From the UHGV virus genome UHGV-0081264: a stretch of 14,630 bases of DNA; one strand, written 5' to 3'. The stretch is from a virus. Below the pieces are notes generated by a model that saw only the letters and a program-made list of their open reading frames with translations, was not told the origin of the DNA and searched no databases. The position numbers and the translations under genes are program-made. Shown here in pieces: positions 4,724-13,463 of this stretch. Each line of letters opens with the position of its first letter. Within the stretch, counting starts at the first letter, position 1.

Positions 4724-5243
4724 TCAGCAACCCCGGTATCATTTCATCCAGCGCAGCTGCCTTGTTCATGGCCTTAATGATGTCCTTCTTGAGGAAATCA
4801 ATATGTCGGTTCTCCAGCTCCGGGAAGCGCCGCTGAACCGACAGAGGTATTCCATCGAGAATGCTGGCGATTTCTCCGGCTACCCGCGACAGCACGAACG
4901 TGCAGAATGCGGTCTCCACCACTTCAGCGGACTCTTTTGCATTTTTTAATTCCTGAGCGTCAGCCTGAGCTCGCGTAAGTCGGTGTCGCTCATATTCAAT
5001 CGTGCCAGGTTGAAGATCGGACTCAGAAGCGATACGGAGATCTTCAACTTCCTTCCGCAACTTTTCATTTTCTATAGCTGCATCGCGCGCACTGTACCAT
5101 TCGATTGCAGCAGCAGATTCAAAGAGAACCTCATTACCTTTGCCACCACCGCGGACAACCGGCATACCTTGCTCCTGCCAGTTCTGAATCGTTCGGACGC
5201 TTACCCCGAAAATTTCGGATAAGCGTTTTTTGTTAACCTCCAT
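4698..5243 (-). CDS. Nu1: Terminase small subunit, lambda Nu1-like
   Basis: 181-aa ORF with ATG start. MEVNKKRLSEIFGVSVRTIQNWQEQGMPV... carries the Nu1 winged-HTH N-terminus. Lies immediately downstream of cos on the minus strand. Confidence 0.95.
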   Translation of the reverse strand: MEVNKKRLSEIFGVSVRTIQNWQEQGMPVVRGGGKGNEVLFESAAAIEWYSARDAAIENEKLRKEVEDLRIASESDLQPGTIEYERHRLTRAQADAQELKNAKESAEVVETAFCTFVLSRVAGEIASILDGIPLSVQRRFPELENRHIDFLKKDIIKAMNKAAALDEMIPGLLSEYIEQSG

Positions 5244-5432: not shown

Positions 5433-5531
5433 TAACAAGGCGGATCGCCGGAAAGGACCCGCAAATGATAATGATTATCATTTGCTGGAATGCGACTTGA
5501 TTCGCACCCATTTGGACGTCTAAACGTCCAT

Positions 5532-5999
5532 TCATCGCGACAGCGCTGACCATATCGTGCCACCTGGCCGAAGACTCTTCTTCAGTTCCTCGGACACAAC
5601 ATCTGAGATCGCTTTTACCATTTCAGGGGATAGCTTCACGCCGGTCTTAATTTCGGGACAGATGCCAACATTGATGGCATAGCCTTTTCGTGGGTCGTTC
5701 TCTATCCGGCCAAACTGAATATTTACAGAGCCACCAATATAACCACCAGCAGGAACACCAAAGCGCGTATTCACCAGGTGCTTAATGGCGAACTCCTGCC
5801 CTTCAGCGGTCAGGAAGGTGTAATAATTTTCCTTTTGATACTCCGTCGCGGTATGGCGTGTTTCAGCGAATCCCAGCTCTAGAAGCTCAGCAGCACCAGA
5901 TTTGGCTGGCAGATCACCAGACTGAAGCGCGCCACGGAAAAACAGCGCATACAGAACATCCGTCGCCGCGCCGGACAACGTGATAATTTTATGACCCAT
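5532..5999 (-). CDS. Hypothetical protein, 155 aa, cos-proximal accessory gene
   Basis: ATG start with an AAGGAA Shine-Dalgarno about 9 nt upstream. A 3' hairpin (5514..5529) follows 3 nt after the stop. I do not recognise the protein. Confidence 0.6.
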   Translation of the reverse strand: MGHKIITLSGAATDVLYALFFRGALQSGDLPAKSGAAELLELGFAETRHTATEYQKENYYTFLTAEGQEFAIKHLVNTRFGVPAGGYIGGSVNIQFGRIENDPRKGYAINVGICPEIKTGVKLSPEMVKAISDVVSEELKKSLRPGGTIWSALSR

Positions 6000-6018
6000 G
6001 ATTTATTTCCTTTTAGGC

Positions 6019-6072
6019 GTGAGCCTGTCGCACGGCAAAGCCGCCGAAAGTTAACGGTTTGCCCAGGCTCAC
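6019..6072 (-). promoter_or_regulatory. Nested inverted repeat in the leader of the 155-aa ORF (GTGAGCCTG ... CAGGCTCAC enclosing GGCAAA ... TTTGCC)
   Basis: Perfect 9-bp outer arms at 6019..6027 and 6064..6072, inner 6-bp arms at 6034..6039 and 6058..6063, about 20 nt upstream of the ORF's RBS. Either an RNA structure or a protein-binding palindrome. Confidence 0.35.
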
Positions 6073-6111
6073 AGCTGAAAGACTTTCTACGATGTGCGCG
6101 TGCGATGCGCA

Positions 6112-6134
6112 TAAAAAAGCCGCGTGATGGCGGC
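6112..6134 (-). terminator. Intrinsic terminator (minus strand)
   Basis: Minus-strand GCCGC-catcac-GCGGC hairpin followed by TTTTTTAT (plus-strand A6 at 6113..6118). Confidence 0.55.
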
Positions 6135-6264
6135 TACTGTTTGAATATCAGGGTGTTGTTTCGTCTTAACCCTGGTTAATGTAGGCATTCAGCCCGTCGG
6201 TGGTGGGACACTGGCGCACTTAATAAAGAGTAATGGCTGATTACCTCAGAATAAGGAATCAAAA

Positions 6265-6525
6265 ATGTCAGAAGGTTTTGGTTTAAAAGAAAAGGTTGAG
6301 CAGTTAGAAAAAGAATTAGCCGTACAAAAAATAGCAAATCAGCTTGCTTTTGGAGCACTAATTAAAGCAGTTAATGAGCTGTACCCGAACAAAGATTTAT
6401 ATGATGGGTTGACAAAATTTGTCCAGGAAAAACTTGATCCTGAACGTGTTAAAAACATCCCTAATCTTCACGAGGCCTTTCTAGAAGCTGCGAAAATACT
6501 GAGGACTGACGCATCTCCTGAATAA
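6265..6525 (+). CDS. Hypothetical small protein, 86 aa, plus strand
   Basis: ATG start with an AAGGAA Shine-Dalgarno 7 nt upstream, AT-rich, opposite orientation to the phage late operon. Its 3' end overlaps a minus-strand small ORF. Confidence 0.45.
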   Translation: MSEGFGLKEKVEQLEKELAVQKIANQLAFGALIKAVNELYPNKDLYDGLTKFVQEKLDPERVKNIPNLHEAFLEAAKILRTDASPE

Positions 6526-6619
6526 TTTTATCAACAAAGGCAGTTGTGTCCTCTTGCTTTTCATTCACAATGCATGTGACTGCCTTTTCTAAAGCTGTAA
6601 TTCGTTCTTCAAGTGTCAT
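6461..6619 (-). CDS. Hypothetical small protein, about 52 aa (MTLEERITALEKAV...)
   Basis: ATG at 6619 preceded by AGGAGT about 5 nt upstream. The track's longer version starts at 6643. An operator-like repeat array lies immediately upstream. Convergent overlap with the 6265..6525 ORF, so one of the two may be spurious. Confidence 0.3.
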   Translation of the reverse strand: MTLEERITALEKAVTCIVNEKQEDTTAFVDKIIQEMRQSSVFSQLLERPRED

Positions 6620-6649
6620 ACCCACTCCTGTCATTGGCTTCAAAATGAT

Positions 6650-6730
6650 AAACCCCGCATTTGCAAGTCCTATTTATACCCCGCAGGGGATAAAAACCAT
6701 ATTATCCGCTTGCGGGGATAACCATTATCA
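6650..6730. promoter_or_regulatory. Array of three CCCCGCA-core palindromic or half-palindromic sites
   Basis: Plus strand reads ATAAACCCCGCA (site 1), TTTATACCCCGCAGGGGATAAA (site 2, near-palindrome) and, in reverse, TTATCCCCGCAAGCGGATAA (site 3, palindromic TTATCC/GGATAA ends). Lies between the stop at 6760 and the start at 6619. Confidence 0.4.
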
Positions 6731-6759
6731 AGCCCACCAGTAGATGGGCTTTGTAATGG

Positions 6760-7017
6760 CTACTTCGCTTTTGCTTCCGCTCGCTTACGCCGGCGCTCTT
6801 CTTTCCTCTCGGCTTTTGCCATGTCCATGAATGCCTGCATGATCGAGTTCCGCATCATGTAGCTAACAAAGTGATGATTGACACAGCCGTTGAGGCGCAG
6901 CTGCTCGCCAAACTCATCCACCGAGGCCAATGCTTCCATCATGCCCTTCTCGCCTTTCATGAACTCTGAGAAGTCGCGCCCCGCTCTGGAGGCGCATTCT
7001 ATTATTCGGGTGCTCAT
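6760..7017 (-). CDS. Hypothetical small protein, about 85 aa, translationally coupled to the KilA-N gene
   Basis: ATG at 7017..7015 sits immediately after the upstream TGA (TGATCATG). Lys/Arg/Glu-rich C-terminus. The track's longer version (start 7077) overlaps the upstream gene in another frame. Confidence 0.45.
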   Translation of the reverse strand: MSTRIIECASRAGRDFSEFMKGEKGMMEALASVDEFGEQLRLNGCVNHHFVSYMMRNSIMQAFMDMAKAERKEERRRKRAEAKAK

Positions 7018-7019
7018 GA

Positions 7020-7748
7020 TCAGGCCGCCGCATAGAGCAATTTCATCTGCCCTTTCACCGGGAATGCCGACATGCAACGCGCTTCGAAATCACGATAATC
7101 AGAGCACCCATTGGCAATGCTGGTAACGGCAATGATCTGTCGCTCAACCAATGTCAGCGCGTCAGGTTTAAGGTGCTGATGGATTTTGTCTCCCGCAGCC
7201 AGCCGTCTTTTAACCTCTGCATATACTTCTGGTGGTAATACCTGGCCATATACCCACTTGGCACTGATCATCCCAAATAGTGCGGGGCGACGACCTGGTC
7301 GATGACGGGGCAGCCCTGACATTTTGAACATCGCAGAATAAAACGGATCGCTAAACCTCTTTTCCCATGGCTGAGATTTATCCAGAAGGAAAATAGCCTT
7401 TATTCTTTCATCGTCGATATGATGAACGGAACCCTGAATGATTGCGTCAATTTGCTCATCACACCAGATCTCAAAATCTACAGAAAGCCATCGAGCAAAT
7501 CTGACCGCCAGCTTTGGGTGAAGCCATGTTCCGCCGCCACGGTCTTTGCGAGCGCGGCTGGTTTTTACATATGTGATATTCCCATATCTACTCTTTAACG
7601 CCTCGATGTAACGGACAGTCTCAGGAAGCCTAAGCCACTGAGCCGGCTCCTTGTTGAACTTGTCAGCTGCCGCAGTCGCGTCAAACCAGCCATCGTCAGA
7701 AAAACGCATGGGATGGCCTTCGAAATCAATCGGGATGATATTGGACAT
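7020..7748 (-). CDS. KilA-N domain protein
   Basis: Likely start ATG at 7748 (MSNIIPIDFEGHPMRF...) with AAGGT about 7 nt upstream; the track extends to a GTG at 7823. The GGTWLHPKLAVRFARWLSVDFEIWCDEQI segment fits the KilA-N/APSES-type motif as I recall it. Confidence 0.7.
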   Translation of the reverse strand: MSNIIPIDFEGHPMRFSDDGWFDATAAADKFNKEPAQWLRLPETVRYIEALKSRYGNITYVKTSRARKDRGGGTWLHPKLAVRFARWLSVDFEIWCDEQIDAIIQGSVHHIDDERIKAIFLLDKSQPWEKRFSDPFYSAMFKMSGLPRHRPGRRPALFGMISAKWVYGQVLPPEVYAEVKRRLAAGDKIHQHLKPDALTLVERQIIAVTSIANGCSDYRDFEARCMSAFPVKGQMKLLYAAA

Positions 7749-7897
7749 CGTATTTACCTTTTTGGTGATATGAGCCAGTTCTCGCAGACATGGACAGCCC
7801 AAGAGCGGCACGATGTAAGCCACCGTCCTGTCTCTGTCTCATATCCCGAAAAGCTCTTGGTTGATATGCGCACGAGAATGCGCGGTTTACTGCGGAC

Positions 7898-7924
7898 ATA
7901 AAAAAGCCCCGCATAGGCGAGGCT
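7898..7924 (-). terminator. Intrinsic terminator (minus strand) just after the peptidase stop
   Basis: Minus-strand AGCCUCGCC-uaug-GCGGGGCU stem (one U·G wobble) followed by UUUUUUAUG. Confidence 0.6.
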
Positions 7925-7942: not shown

Positions 7943-8845
7943 TTAAGACTGGATATTCCAAATCATTGCGTTACCGTTATGATTTTCAATGATTTTTGCC
8001 AGTGGTGCTCCACCAAAAGAATGCATGTAGCTGTGATGTATAGTCAAAACCAAATCTTGAAGTACTTGATCACTTTCAAGTTCGGTAACATTCAACCCAA
8101 TTTTCTGCGCCTTATCAAAATGAATATGACGCGAGTGGGTATAGGTTGTGTGATGGTTGTTTAACTCTGAACAAACATGTGTTGCTTTTGATTCTGCCTC
8201 AGGATCATTATCAAACATGCCTGTCATAAGCCAATGCTTAACAATCTCATTTGCCCATTTGATTGCTTTCTCACACTCGCCGATGATCGTCGGGTTTAGC
8301 TTTTGAAGAATGAACTGCCACATCTGAACAGCTGCGGGATTTTGAAAAATTTCCGTCTGCGCACGATTCCATTCTTCAATGATGGCATGGGTGGAGAAAC
8401 CGTTGAACTGAGGATCAATTGGGCCAATGTTGGACTGTTTACCCATGATGATTTCATTGGCACAACATGCAAGCATAGTTCCGCAGGACATTGAAATCAT
8501 AGGAACAATTGCTCTGATGTTAGTTCCAAACTTCGACCTTAAGTAATGCCCGATTGATTCCAAAGCGGCAATATCACCACCTGGAGTATGAAGTATCAAA
8601 TCCAACCCTTTTGATACATCTAAACCATTGATGGCTGTCATCAACCCGTTCTTATCATCATCAGTCATCTGAGTAAGATGGCGTACTTCTGCACCACCAT
8701 GCTGTAACCACCCTGAGTAATATGTGATTACATTTCTTCCAGTATGATTCGAAAGTTGAGATAAGTATTTACGGCGAACCTCATCCATAGGACTTTTATG
8801 GGCGAGAGCCGTTATCTCGCCCAGTACGTCGCTCCAATTAGGCAT
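7943..8845 (-). CDS. ClpP/S49-fold serine peptidase, SDH-family-like, 300 aa
   Basis: ATG start 3 nt after the upstream ORF's stop (coupled). LILHTPGGDIAALESIG resembles the ClpP/SppA oxyanion-loop motif, and PMISMSCGTMLA resembles the nucleophile region. AT-rich relative to the head genes. Confidence 0.7.
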   Translation of the reverse strand: MPNWSDVLGEITALAHKSPMDEVRRKYLSQLSNHTGRNVITYYSGWLQHGGAEVRHLTQMTDDDKNGLMTAINGLDVSKGLDLILHTPGGDIAALESIGHYLRSKFGTNIRAIVPMISMSCGTMLACCANEIIMGKQSNIGPIDPQFNGFSTHAIIEEWNRAQTEIFQNPAAVQMWQFILQKLNPTIIGECEKAIKWANEIVKHWLMTGMFDNDPEAESKATHVCSELNNHHTTYTHSRHIHFDKAQKIGLNVTELESDQVLQDLVLTIHHSYMHSFGGAPLAKIIENHNGNAMIWNIQS

Positions 8846-8848
8846 AAA

Positions 8849-9049
8849 TCAGTACGTGTAAAGTTGATGACTTGTAGTTTGGTTTTGCTTCGATTGTGTA
8901 GCGGTACCTTGTGAGTACCAAACACCTGTGTTTCCACTCGTACTAGTTTGCTGTGCCATTACACGAGAAGCGAAGTTGTTAACAGTTTCACCAGTCAACA
9001 TTTCTGCCGGTTTGATATTGTAAACATCGTAGAACTCAGCTGGGGTCAT
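8849..9049 (-). CDS. Hypothetical small protein, 66 aa, first gene of the peptidase operon
   Basis: ATG start with GGAG about 8 nt upstream. Ser/Thr/Gln-rich. Its stop is 3 nt before the peptidase ATG. Confidence 0.55.
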   Translation of the reverse strand: MTPAEFYDVYNIKPAEMLTGETVNNFASRVMAQQTSTSGNTGVWYSQGTATQSKQNQTTSHQLYTY

Positions 9050-9073
9050 AATGATAGCTCCTTTTATAGCGCT

Positions 9074-9111
9074 ACATATAGTGCCTGTGCCAAGGGGGAC
9101 ATACTATATGT
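9074..9111. promoter_or_regulatory. Perfect 9-bp inverted repeat ACATATAGT-N20-ACTATATGT in the promoter region of the 66-aa/peptidase operon
   Basis: Arms at 9074..9082 and 9103..9111 are exact reverse complements. Located 25–60 nt upstream of the 66-aa ORF start and overlapping TATAGT/TATATG -10-like hexamers. Confidence 0.45.
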
Positions 9112-9135
9112 GCCATTGTTGTCATATTTAAATGT

Positions 9136-9160
9136 GCAAAAAGCCTCAAAAGAGGCTTGA
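9136..9160 (-). terminator. Intrinsic terminator (minus strand) downstream of the lysis cassette
   Basis: Minus-strand AAGCCUC-uuuu-GAGGCUU hairpin followed by UUUG. Confidence 0.55.
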
Positions 9161-9419
9161 AAAAGATGCAAAAATACTATCTATGACGTGACTATAGCTA
9201 CTTACCCACAGTTTATACAAGCCAAAAATGCTAAATTCAGATAATCCTATTCGCTGAAAAACTACACAAAAGCTACGTTCATCTTGTCATTAGATAACGT
9301 CAGTAACTTTCACTGGATCTAAGCCATTGGTGAAAAAGCTAATTGCATGATGAAGCACTGTAATGTAGCAGTTGAGGTTGTTAAATGAGAATCACCCTAA
9401 CAATGTCAACGGACATTAT

Positions 9420-9956
9420 TCATTTTCGTAACTTCTCAATCTCTCGTATACCCGCCAGGTTATTGTTGCCCTTCTCAATAACAGCCAGCAAAGGTTCAAT
9501 CCAGAGGACGGCCTGGCAATACGTCATTGAGCTGGCGGCAGCGGTACTATCATCGGTTGCGTTAGTGTTCCCGGTATCGGGGTGCATTGCGCTGGCACGT
9601 AAACGGTACGCGTATTTGAGCAGCCCACCAGCGACATCAGCAGGAACAGGCAGATCACAGGTCTTTTCACGTCGGAGAATCTCCCGGTATTCGATGACAG
9701 TTTTCTCAGTACCGGCATCGATCAGCGAGTTAAGGCGGTTGGCGTTCTCTGCTATCTGGTTAAACCGATTGAAGTTGAAAGCCTGTGTAGTTATCACCGT
9801 CGCCTGCAGCGCGTTATCATTACGTAATACCCGATTCTCACTCTGTTCTGTTTCAAGAGCTGAGCGGCTACGAACCAGTAATACGCTAAGCACTGCAATA
9901 ATGATTACGACAGCCACCAGCAGAACCGCAACAATCGTAATTTTTCTGGGTTTCAT
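9420..9956 (-). CDS. Rz: i-spanin (Rz-like)
   Basis: ATG start overlapping the endolysin stop (TGATG). N-terminal transmembrane segment (KITIVAVLLVAVVIIIAVLSVLLV), then a charged, helix-rich periplasmic domain. An o-spanin ORF is embedded in the +1 frame. Confidence 0.8.
   Translation of the reverse strand: MKPRKITIVAVLLVAVVIIIAVLSVLLVRSRSALETEQSENRVLRNDNALQATVITTQAFNFNRFNQIAENANRLNSLIDAGTEKTVIEYREILRREKTCDLPVPADVAGGLLKYAYRLRASAMHPDTGNTNATDDSTAAASSMTYCQAVLWIEPLLAVIEKGNNNLAGIREIEKLRK
9524..9718 (-). CDS. Rz1: o-spanin (Rz1-like lipoprotein) embedded within Rz
   Basis: Entirely inside Rz in another frame. Lipobox LVGC followed by a Pro-rich tail (PIPGTLTQPMIVPLPPAQ). The true start may lie downstream of the ATG at 9718. 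Confidence 0.7.
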   Translation of the reverse strand: MPVLRKLSSNTGRFSDVKRPVICLFLLMSLVGCSNTRTVYVPAQCTPIPGTLTQPMIVPLPPAQ

Positions 9957-10528
9957 CAGAATACCCCCGGAACTGATACCGGAATGCCTGGGTTAAGCGG
10001 CCCGAGCCCATCACCAAGAACCTGAGGTTTTTCTGCCCACAGGCAAACTTCACGCTCAATCTCACGCCGGGTAATCAACCCTTTCCATTGCTTACCACCG
10101 GCATATGTCCATCGACGAAGCTGATCACATGCGCCTTTGATATCACCCTGGTTTATTTTGTAGAGAAGAGTGGAGGTTTTGAAATTGCCAGCACCGACGT
10201 TGTAGACAAACGAGTAAAGAGCGCCCCGAGTAGTTTCAGGGATCGGAACCTTGATGTACGGATTAATCTGCTGCGCTACGGTGGTGAGGTCTTTATTAAG
10301 TAACGCTCGACACTCTGCTTTGGTGTAGGTCTTGCCGAGGATAATATCTTTACCAGTATGGCCCCAGCATACAGTCCACACTCCAACAACATCCCGATAA
10401 GGCTGATAGCGTACACCTTCAAGGCCATCATTACCCGTTGGGCCAGTAATCAACGCCGCAGCGATAGCAATAGCGCCAGCGGGTATCGCTGCAATAACGC
10501 TATTCTTCAGCTTTGGTGACATTGCCAT
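9956..10528 (-). CDS. R: SAR endolysin (GH24, T4-type lysozyme fold)
   Basis: ATG start. Gly/Ala-rich weakly hydrophobic N-terminus ([22 protein letters not shown]) typical of a signal-anchor-release domain, followed by the E-x8-D-x5-T catalytic motif ([24 protein letters not shown]). Confidence 0.85.
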
Positions 10529-10778
10529 TAAGCCGGTCCTCCCTTTCCTTTTTCCTGTAATACCAATTCACTGCACAGGTGATTACAGTGCATGCGATAC
10601 CGACAATAATTGCCCAGTCGCTCAGGCTTAACCCTGCAATTCTGTCGGCCAACATCCAGGACACCTCTTTTGCTGTTTTAGCTGTTTCGGCATATGCCTT
10701 CGCTGATACACCGCAGCCGGTCAGCGTGGTTCCTGTTCCATATGAAAGTCTGCTGTAAATGGTGCTCATTCTGGTCAT
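10500..10778 (-). CDS. S: Class II holin, pinholin-like (phage 21 S-like), with dual-start motif
   Basis: Starts MTRMSTIY (Met1 and Met4). Two transmembrane segments; the C-terminal end ...[13 protein letters not shown] parallels S21 ...NLYFKIREDRRK as I recall it. Strong GGAGGTGAGG Shine-Dalgarno. 3' end overlaps the endolysin start. Confidence 0.8.
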
Positions 10779-12669: not shown

Positions 12670-12703
12670 CAGAAACGCAAAAGCCCCGCACGATGGCGAG
12701 GCT
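12670..12703 (-). terminator. Intrinsic terminator (minus strand), tR'-like, downstream of Q
   Basis: Minus-strand GCCUCGCC-aucgu-GCGGGGC stem (one U·G wobble) followed by UUUUGCGUUU. Same stem sequence as the terminator at 7898..7924. Confidence 0.55.
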
Positions 12704-12773
12704 CCTTAAAATCATTTACTGCCAGTGCATACAACAATGGCACAATATCAGATTTACATGAAATATATGCGTT
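12704..12773 (-). promoter_or_regulatory. Candidate late promoter region (pR'-like) between Q and the tR'-like terminator
   Basis: Positional inference only: AT-rich 70-nt gap directly after the Q stop and before a terminator. Possible -35/-10 hexamers (TTGTAT / TTTTAA) cannot be fixed by eye. Confidence 0.25.
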
Positions 12774-13463
12774 TTAATCCAGTTTTGCAATATTTTGGTG
12801 TGAATTTGTCGCCTTTTGTTGTGAACGTGATCGCGTTACTTGCAATAAAGCCTCGCTGTCGAGGCTCATGAAGATTCGCTTCATCTCCACCCAGCGGTCG
12901 GTAAACGTCTCTGACCAGTTCTTTGGTGTCACGCCCACCAATTCTGCCAGCGCCTGGTACTCGTATGTCTCACGCCCACCCAACCCCGCTTTCACATCCT
13001 GCGCCGCCAGCCAGATTAGCTTCTTCAGTCGCTCCATCGTTTTGCCTGCCACCCGCTTACCTTCCAGTTGCTGGCTGAACTCTGCCCACGCCCACTGGGT
13101 GATCGCCACCTGGTATTCGAAGCGGATATTCTCGCTGTAGTTCCACAGAAGCCATGCTTTCTGGTGGTCTTCAAGCGACAGCACCGCGCGGCGCCACGAT
13201 GCGGTCACAAACTCAACCGGCCCCACCAGCGCGATAGATGATCCCTTTGCGCGGGACTGGCTGCCGCTCATCGCCGGGCCGTCAGGGTTAACTTTCCGAC
13301 CAGTGACCGGGTCGGTGATTTTCTTCCTGCCCCGGCTGCGCGCCGTCGCGGTGAACTGCGCGTTTTCGGCGAAAGCTACCAGCTGCCCTTTCGTCGCCCC
13401 GCTGAGGTCTGCGGTCGCCACAATGAGCTGCTGACGTACGTATTCCAGTTGCTGACTGTTCAT
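12774..13463 (-). CDS. Putative late-gene antitermination protein Q (non-lambda type)
   Basis: 229-aa ORF, ATG start with GAAGGAAG Shine-Dalgarno. Sits between NinG and the lysis region where lambdoid phages carry Q. The sequence is unlike lambda Q, so the family assignment is by position and weak recollection. Confidence 0.5.
   Translation of the reverse strand: MNSQQLEYVRQQLIVATADLSGATKGQLVAFAENAQFTATARSRGRKKITDPVTGRKVNPDGPAMSGSQSRAKGSSIALVGPVEFVTASWRRAVLSLEDHQKAWLLWNYSENIRFEYQVAITQWAWAEFSQQLEGKRVAGKTMERLKKLIWLAAQDVKAGLGGRETYEYQALAELVGVTPKNWSETFTDRWVEMKRIFMSLDSEALLQVTRSRSQQKATNSHQNIAKLD

Follow-up and report, generated by a model that had tools for sequence, protein, structure and literature searches.

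A probable NrdR box pair in front of a small-protein and ClpP-fold protease operon of an Escherichia coli prophage

Organization of the protease module

The window analyzed here, the whole stretch of 14,630 nucleotides from the virus genome UHGV-0081264, is a mosaic lambdoid E. coli prophage whose head genes resemble those of mEp237 and phi80. On its minus strand, the holin, lysozyme and spanin genes are followed by a two-gene operon that codes for a 66-aa protein and a serine protease. Past the protease, the order on the same strand is a KilA-N/P63C protein, several small ORFs, Nu1, the terminase large subunit, W and portal. The elements in and around the operon are listed below in the direction of reading.

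12790-12762, minus strand: phage late promoter pR' (TTGCAA-17-TATATT), after the Q gene (12774-13463, PF06323)
10500-10778, minus strand: holin gene
9956-10528, minus strand: lysozyme gene
9420-9956, minus strand: Rz-like spanin gene, followed by a 370-nt gap
9220-9215 and 9196-9191, minus strand: promoter candidate P0 (-35 TTGTAT, 18 nt, -10 TATAGT), by pattern match only
9136-9158, minus strand: leader hairpin AAGCCTC-TTTT-GAGGCTT with a T-run (-10.8 kcal/mol), terminator-like or attenuator-like
9061-9058, minus strand: Shine-Dalgarno sequence GGAG, before the 66-aa ORF
8849-9049, minus strand: 66-aa ORF, first gene (ATG 9049, stop 8849; phrog_25714, E 3.9e-44; WP_029397174.1 in relatives)
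7943-8845, minus strand: SDH-family ClpP-fold serine protease of 300 aa, second gene (PF01972, E 8.4e-23; phrog_11747)
7905-7924, minus strand: intrinsic terminator AGCCTCGCC-TATG-CGGGGCT followed by TTTTTT (-13.5 kcal/mol), which closes the module

The order of the parts is common to all clades that were compared: promoter, short leader, hairpin with T-run, the box pair described below, Shine-Dalgarno sequence, small ORF, protease and terminator. In most clades P0 recurs at this place and matches 8-10 of the 12 consensus positions. The leader hairpin, which was not called by a strict terminator scan, is conserved in sequence or in kind. The direct repeats of the ATAGTAT type that the earlier note had placed at about 9165-9200 are present (CTATAGT...ATAGATAGTAT, minus strand); they are not further copies of an operator and correspond to the -10 hexamer and early transcribed region of this separate, conserved module promoter. 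P0 and the leader hairpin were also considered as the phage's own pR'-tR' and ruled out as such, since a separate, typical pR'-tR' is located between Q and the module promoter (in the window, pR' at 12790-12762). The terminator hairpin of pR' (AGCCTCGCC-atcgt-GCGGGGCT then TTTTGCGTTT, within 12675-12790, minus strand) has a tail that resembles the tail of the module's leader hairpin.

The protease is named 'SDH family Clp fold serine proteinase' in RefSeq, and its family has at least ~8,000 database relatives at E<=1e-10. A single-protein scan of the genome contigs with the protease returned one locus. In the enterobacterial clade the small partner protein has 64-71 aa, and the LY[S/T]Y at its C-terminus is invariant. 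The small protein is kept together with the protease far beyond the clade that carries the boxes, and is characterized by an N-terminal F/Y..(Y/L)G(I/L) motif and a tail rich in Ser, Thr, Gln and Asn; it may be a substrate or a partner of the protease. No hit to PADLOC defence systems was obtained with either protein, a sequence comparison with the PDB gave no relative of the cargo, and comparison with named phages gave no close homologue, only relatives of 37-46% identity. A literature search on the small protein and SDH protease returned nothing relevant.

The module is preceded by one of three unrelated Q antiterminator families or by spanins, and occurs next to different terminases. In the window it is positioned behind the spanin, and in many relatives behind Q and the phage's separate pR'-tR'. 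Identical copies are also present in another prophage backbone, which has a DUF1441 small terminase and no KilA-N gene, so the element, the 66-aa ORF and the protease move together as a cassette. The distribution of this cassette is patchy (49 of 5426 E. coli genomes). Judged from this arrangement, the module is a self-contained moron in the lambdoid late region. It resembles the lambdoid morons bor and lom, and the stx genes after pR'-tR', in being an autonomous cassette between late genes with a patchy distribution and its own predicted promoter and terminator. Unlike these morons, it carries a predicted operator for a host repressor and a leader hairpin, and its cargo is absent from PADLOC.

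The inverted repeat and its match to NrdR operators

The earlier note had drawn attention to a perfect 9-bp inverted repeat with a 20-nt spacer, located 25-60 nt upstream of the start of the 66-aa ORF. The description is accurate: the arms ACATATAGT (9074-9082) and ACTATATGT (9103-9111, both on the plus strand) are exact reverse complements separated by 20 nt, and the ATG (9049, minus strand) follows 25-62 nt downstream of them. Taken alone, such a repeat is not beyond chance, since the window contains six perfect inverted repeats of this kind (arms of 9-10 nt, spacers <=40 nt); it is conservation that shows it to be real. The half-site CACATATAGT, with one mismatch allowed, matches only the two arms in the window, a result equalled by 23 of 200 shuffles. 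A search of the intergenic region against a phage collection at the DNA level gave no match. Of 5426 complete E. coli genomes, 42 contain an identical copy of the 591-bp region, and seven more have a copy of ~77% identity. In these more distant homologues the arms and their immediate flanks are unchanged (AATGGCACATATAGT ... CACTATATGTAGC), whereas the 20-nt spacer is almost wholly replaced with its length kept.

The earlier note had proposed a search for the same palindrome elsewhere, and it was this search that led to NrdR. In IMG/VR, the pattern ACATATAGT-N14-26-ACTATATGT gave 108 matches in 107 contig stretches. The spacer was 20 nt in 45 of them and 19 nt in 30 (75/108 together), while every other length occurred 0-6 times, save for an unrelated family with a 14-nt spacer. 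An arm spacing of 19-20 nt places the centers of the surrounding boxes 31-32 bp apart, and in many unrelated contigs each arm is contained in a full 16-bp palindrome, such as ACACTACATATAGTGT.

The repressor NrdR is found in most bacteria. It is a tetramer with two pairs of Zn-ribbon domains, each pair binding one 16-bp box and kinking the DNA, and with ATP alone it forms filaments that are unable to bind DNA. Its operator consists of two partially palindromic 16-bp boxes, both of which are needed for binding, separated by a linker of 15-16 bp (rarely 26-27) that is constrained in length and free in sequence (PMC13584703). Each box has six highly conserved positions, C4, A6, A8, T9, T11 and G13, with C4 and G13 being critical, and a high A+T content between positions 4 and 13 that is needed for the sharp bend of the DNA (PMC13584703). 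Binding of E. coli NrdR requires dATP plus ATP or ADP (PMC12176259). When the window was compared with these features, the 9-bp arms were found to be the inner halves of two such boxes.

9101-9116, minus strand: predicted NrdR box A, ATGGCACATATAGTAT; holds the upstream arm and has A6, A8, T9, T11 and G13, with G at position 4
9085-9100, minus strand: linker of 16 bp, GTCCCCCTTGGCACAG; conserved in length, free in sequence
9069-9084, minus strand: predicted NrdR box B, GCACTATATGTAGCGC; has all six conserved positions (6/6)

The full two-box site thus covers 48 bp (9069-9116), compared with 38 bp for the repeat, and the near-palindromic form of each box accounts for the mirror symmetry of the arms. 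Box A has five of its six conserved positions (position 4 is G, followed by C at position 5), so the pair as a whole has 11 of 12, a score equal to that of the authentic nrdAB operator of E. coli. The A/T content of positions 5-12 is 6/8 in box A (CACATATA) and 7/8 in box B (TATATGTA), and the mean of 0.81 falls within the range of 0.81-0.94 given for E. coli (PMC13584703). The presence of two boxes and a 16-bp linker is in agreement with both the two-box requirement and the linker rule of NrdR operators. A scanner that counts the 12 conserved positions at linkers of 15 and 16 bp gave 12/12 for the authentic E. coli nrdEF and nrdDG sites and 11/12 for nrdAB. Applied to the whole 14.6-kb window, it returned a single pair with a score >=10, the one at 9069-9116 (11/12). 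Dinucleotide shuffles of the window contained on average 0.063 pairs of >=11/12 (about 6% of the shuffled windows hold one), and shuffles of the 370-nt intergenic region held a pair >=11 in 0.002 of cases (0.2%). Since a score of 11/12 is expected by chance ~4 times per Mb, the score is unconvincing without conservation.

The likeness to the E. coli nrdAB, nrdHIEF and nrdDG operators comprises the two 16-bp boxes, the free linker of 15-16 bp and the AT-rich cores. Box 1 of nrdDG (GCACTATATATAGACT) shares GCACTATAT and TAG with box B of the window, the first nine bases being identical. Box A of the window differs from the E. coli nrd consensus by its G4. The E. coli nrd operons control RNR genes, whereas the predicted site in the window precedes a 66-aa protein and a ClpP-fold protease and is borne by a prophage. 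The context of RNR operons in which NrdR operators are found is absent here, as no RNR homologue is annotated in the window. This context defines the known NrdR regulon and not the binding site, and in its predicted structure the site, with G4 of box A as the one deviating position, is that of a canonical NrdR operator, whose clear departure from known ones is in the genes it precedes.

Together with the comparisons described below, these features make it likely that a tandem NrdR box pair, an operator for the host repressor NrdR, has the inverted repeat as its core. The earlier note had taken the repeat for a dimeric repressor operator that silences the operon until a signal arrives. Comparative evidence supports an operator, and the details are different: the site has two boxes and covers 48 bp, and its probable ligand is the tetrameric host NrdR instead of a dimer. 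The fallback of two half-sites mentioned there was the closer guess, the half-sites being 16-bp boxes separated by a 16-bp linker.

Conservation of the box pair and alternative readings

The viral matches in IMG/VR had been picked through the motif, and for this reason a second set of loci was gathered by protein similarity. It comprised 161 protease-homologue loci (one genome, 80 viral and 80 metagenome), from which 125 non-redundant upstream regions were compared, 32 at >=62% protease identity and 93 at <58%; many of these loci are related prophages and hence not fully independent. A pair of 11-12/12 with a linker of 15 or 16 bp was present in 31 of the 32 upstream regions of the closer group, always 213-240 nt before the protease start and just ahead of the small ORF. 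The sole exception, L184, is a truncated match. Below 58% identity, a pair was found in only one of 93 regions, and it was weak and differently placed. When the linker length was varied from 5 to 35 bp, 16 upstream pairs were obtained at 15 bp and another 16 at 16 bp, as opposed to 0-2 at other lengths, with artefacts at 23 bp excluded. A 23-bp linker class or a third box was rejected, as in the eight upstream matches of this length one partner is a real box and the other falls in the palindromic hairpin or in coding sequence. Outside the upstream regions, the other 523 kb of the loci yielded two pair matches only.

Among the 26 distinct box pairs, no substitution occurs at A6, A8, T9, T11 or G13, and C4 is found in box A of 21 and in box B of 25; the other positions vary freely. 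The linkers have a mutual identity of 0.30, and their length alternates between 15 and 16 bp only. In the Mangrovibacter site (TGTCTATATGTAGTCC-15-CTACTACATATGGTGA) the score is 12/12 even though the perfect 9-bp repeat is lost. The critical positions are therefore fixed while the boxes and linkers around them diverge, which indicates that the recognition pattern is maintained, as predicted for a protein-binding site. A chance palindrome or functionless relic is accordingly the least credible of the readings, for although six comparable repeats occur in the window and ~6% of shuffled windows hold a pair >=11/12, the arms are invariant while the spacer diverges, and a valid pair is kept in 31/32 clade loci as the non-critical bases turn over.

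The G4 of box A is confined to five distinct variants, all from the E. coli clade at >=94% identity that includes the window, and C4 (12/12) is present in all other clades. A displaced C4 in one box is tolerated in vitro with affinity roughly halved (206 nM versus 91 nM), whereas one nrdEF mutant in which C and G were 7 bp apart no longer bound (PMC13584703). With G4 and C5 in its box A, the version in the window may therefore bind weakly.

In another reading, which we regard as unlikely, the regulator that binds here is a product of the module or of the phage itself, either the 66-aa protein as an autoregulator or a repressor of the CI/Cro type whose site happens to look like NrdR boxes. The 66-aa ORF always accompanies the boxes in the clade at >=62% identity, products of small first genes are often autoregulators, and several box pairs in other viral contigs precede genes for Cro/C1-type HTH proteins. 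Against the 66-aa protein, no DNA-binding domain was matched in it, distant protease homologues have a small upstream ORF but no boxes, and complete boxes are also present in unrelated phage contigs that lack the ORF. The NrdR-specific positions (11-12/12) and the 15/16-bp linker rule are also obeyed in 31/32 loci. Against a phage-encoded regulator, no other copy of the half-site was found in the window, the Q/NinG region included, and no phage-specific regulator is common to backbones with three Q families and different terminases. The hallmarks of a CI/Cro-type immunity operator, repeated copies and an adjacent repressor gene, are absent from the window, the nearest regulators being Q and KilA-N, and there is no sign of a regulator encoded by the phage. 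The position of the module behind unrelated Q families or spanins argues for a host factor rather than a phage-specific regulator. Motifs of sigma-54, LexA and P2-Ogr type were judged by eye and rejected, their defining bases being missing.

There is little probability that the AT-rich boxes are promoter elements (-10-like TATAGT or TATATG) and not a repressor site. The earlier note had pointed to -10-like hexamers under the arms, and this finds weak support in TTTAAA-18-TATAGT (9132-9103), which matches 9 of 12 consensus positions and has its -10 inside box A; in E. coli nrdHIEF, too, box 2 seems to end on the -10. However, this -35/-10 pair is confined to the E. coli clade, and box positions 9-14 read TCTTGT, TGTTGT or TGTGGT elsewhere. 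The invariant C4/G13 and the two-box symmetry are foreign to promoters, the number of promoter-like matches in the region equals the shuffle expectation, and a stronger, conserved promoter lies upstream. A conserved sigma-70 promoter over the boxes was sought and rejected, as none is common to the clades. The repeat had been described as lying over the promoter of the operon; the conserved promoter candidate is located ~75 nt upstream, with the hairpin and its T-run in between. Promoter elements are compatible with an NrdR operator, and the two could overlap.

It is very improbable that the arms act at the RNA level, as a stem-loop (9-bp stem, 20-nt loop) through which the 5' leader of the operon mRNA would control translation, stability or processing. 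The site is probably transcribed from the upstream promoter, and the arms are paired in the predicted minimum-free-energy fold, but the z-score of this fold is -0.50, and 59 of 200 shuffles fold equally well. No Rfam match was obtained, with only noise at E<=10. Five positions per box are invariant and not covarying, complementarity at the free positions is 0.61 versus 0.57 expected, and C4 of box A and G13 of box B are conserved yet lie outside the stem. Complementarity between the boxes arises automatically because each box is palindromic. One pair of positions, A10/B7 (9107/9078 in the window), is complementary in 0.85 of the distinct sites versus 0.46 expected, which would favor a stem, and is occupied by A-T, G-C or C-G in different clades. 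This excess follows in part from the tendency of both boxes to a palindromic ACATGT core, and may stem from the two-fold symmetry of the tetramer, from common ancestry or from another cause.

Proposed regulation and occurrence in other phages

With NrdR as the probable ligand, a mode of regulation can be proposed. When dATP is plentiful, NrdR would occupy 9069-9116, directly upstream of the ribosome-binding site, and keep the operon from being expressed. A fall of dATP relative to ATP, as expected under replication stress, a drain of dNTPs and possibly heavy phage DNA synthesis, would release NrdR and turn the operon on together with the host RNR genes. The reading thus predicts an inducing condition, namely low dATP, hydroxyurea or replication stress.

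NrdR would most likely act downstream of the transcription start, possibly as a roadblock. The functional boxes of nrdAB also sit downstream of the promoter (PMC12176259), and the site in the window is likewise downstream of the likely transcription start, with P0 ~65 nt upstream of box A. The nrdAB boxes are located at about +15 to +61, whereas the window site is at about +66 to +113 from the candidate start (predicted at ~9184), behind the leader hairpin with its T-run. From this position, and from the lack of a conserved promoter over the boxes, it follows that NrdR probably blocks the elongating polymerase. The end of the hairpin is 22-24 nt before box A in 22 of the 24 loci in which it was detected, while the sequence between them varies, and this constant distance suggests that NrdR may stall the polymerase on the T-run. 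A polymerase positioned on the T-run extends about this far (22-24 nt) downstream. The stalled enzyme would turn a leaky terminator into an efficient one, in effect a nucleotide-responsive attenuator, and this would be a new mode of action for NrdR, although such roadblock-assisted termination at the leader hairpin is speculative. Alternatively, NrdR could occlude the weak clade-specific promoter TTTAAA-18-TATAGT that has its -10 inside box A. We are much less confident in any one mode of repression than in the operator itself.

The spacer of the module promoter contains a perfect DnaA box, TGTGGATAA, in four separate lineages (L115:2634-2662, L150, L162 and L163), ~92-95 nt before box A. In L115 two perfect DnaA boxes flank the -10, against a background of one perfect box in 159 kb. 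In the window (9201-9210 and 9133-9141), the DnaA-like sequences are TGTGGGTAA, an 8/9 match in the promoter spacer, and the relaxed TTTTGCACA just past the hairpin. E. coli nrdAB is under the control of both DnaA and NrdR. The combination of DnaA boxes and NrdR boxes, as found at nrdAB, suggests that the control region of the module may mimic an RNR promoter.

Box pairs are not restricted to loci with the protease. The same arms with a spacing of 19-20 nt were found at 46 distinct viral loci without it, 36 of which score 12/12 including C4 and G13, the two positions that lay outside the search pattern. Examples from this set (loci L005-L108, IMG/VR) are the following.

L010:5017-5064: protease-free viral box pair
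L033:465-511: protease-free viral box pair
L050:4579-4626: protease-free viral box pair
L062:9338-9384: protease-free viral box pair
L105:4994-5041: protease-free viral box pair

Most of these contigs are low in G+C (23-40%). The genes that read away from their boxes code for a terminase large subunit, two amidase endolysins, an HNH endonuclease, a metallophosphatase and DUF5662, and for Cro/C1-type HTH proteins. The prediction that these viral loci with the motif would prove to be RNR operons of phages did not hold: when 75 motif loci were searched by tblastn with E. coli NrdA, B, D, E, F, G, H and I, an RNR gene was found within 3 kb in one of them. NrdR-type operators at non-RNR phage genes may thus be widespread, and the complete box pairs in front of many such genes suggest a general phenomenon.

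In the literature searched, NrdR is called RNR-specific, with the exception of topA of Pseudomonas aeruginosa, which is the only validated non-RNR target and has a single, activating box (PMC4409342). The site in the window resembles that of topA as a predicted NrdR site before a non-RNR gene. The topA gene is chromosomal and activated through one box, whereas the window has a canonical tandem pair on a mobile element, at which repression would be expected. No report of NrdR boxes at non-RNR genes of phages or prophages was found in the literature searched, which took in subscription papers only in part, and NrdR control of a non-RNR prophage operon, as predicted here, appears to be previously unreported.

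A broader and tentative interpretation, to which we give somewhat less than even weight, is that temperate phages have recruited the dATP/ATP-sensing NrdR of the host for non-RNR genes, so that the NrdR regulon would extend into the mobilome. If so, phage gene expression would be gated by the dNTP status of the cell, and mobile elements would be able to plug into the dNTP-sensing circuit of their host. A maintained NrdR operator at a prophage accessory operon would, if true, be a new type of regulon member. The NrdR reading would also offer a first handle on an uncharacterised and very widespread pair of a small protein and an SDH-family ClpP-fold protease.

Several minor features were observed on the far side of the module. 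Between the module and cos, the stretch at 5532-7823 (minus strand) codes for the KilA-N/P63C protein and for 105-aa and 155-aa proteins that belong to PHROG families only, and it varies between otherwise similar prophages; the KilA-N/P63C protein has a weak PADLOC match to the candidate system PDC-S22 (E 1e-4). Just upstream of Nu1, near the cos region, a 15-nt near-perfect palindrome (CCCGCAAATGATAAT/ATTATCATTTGCTGG, 1 nt apart) is located at 5458-5488, near the start of homology to phage genome ends. Within the Nu1 gene, at 5009-5048, there is a perfect 10-nt inverted repeat, GTTGAAGATC, with a 20-nt spacer.
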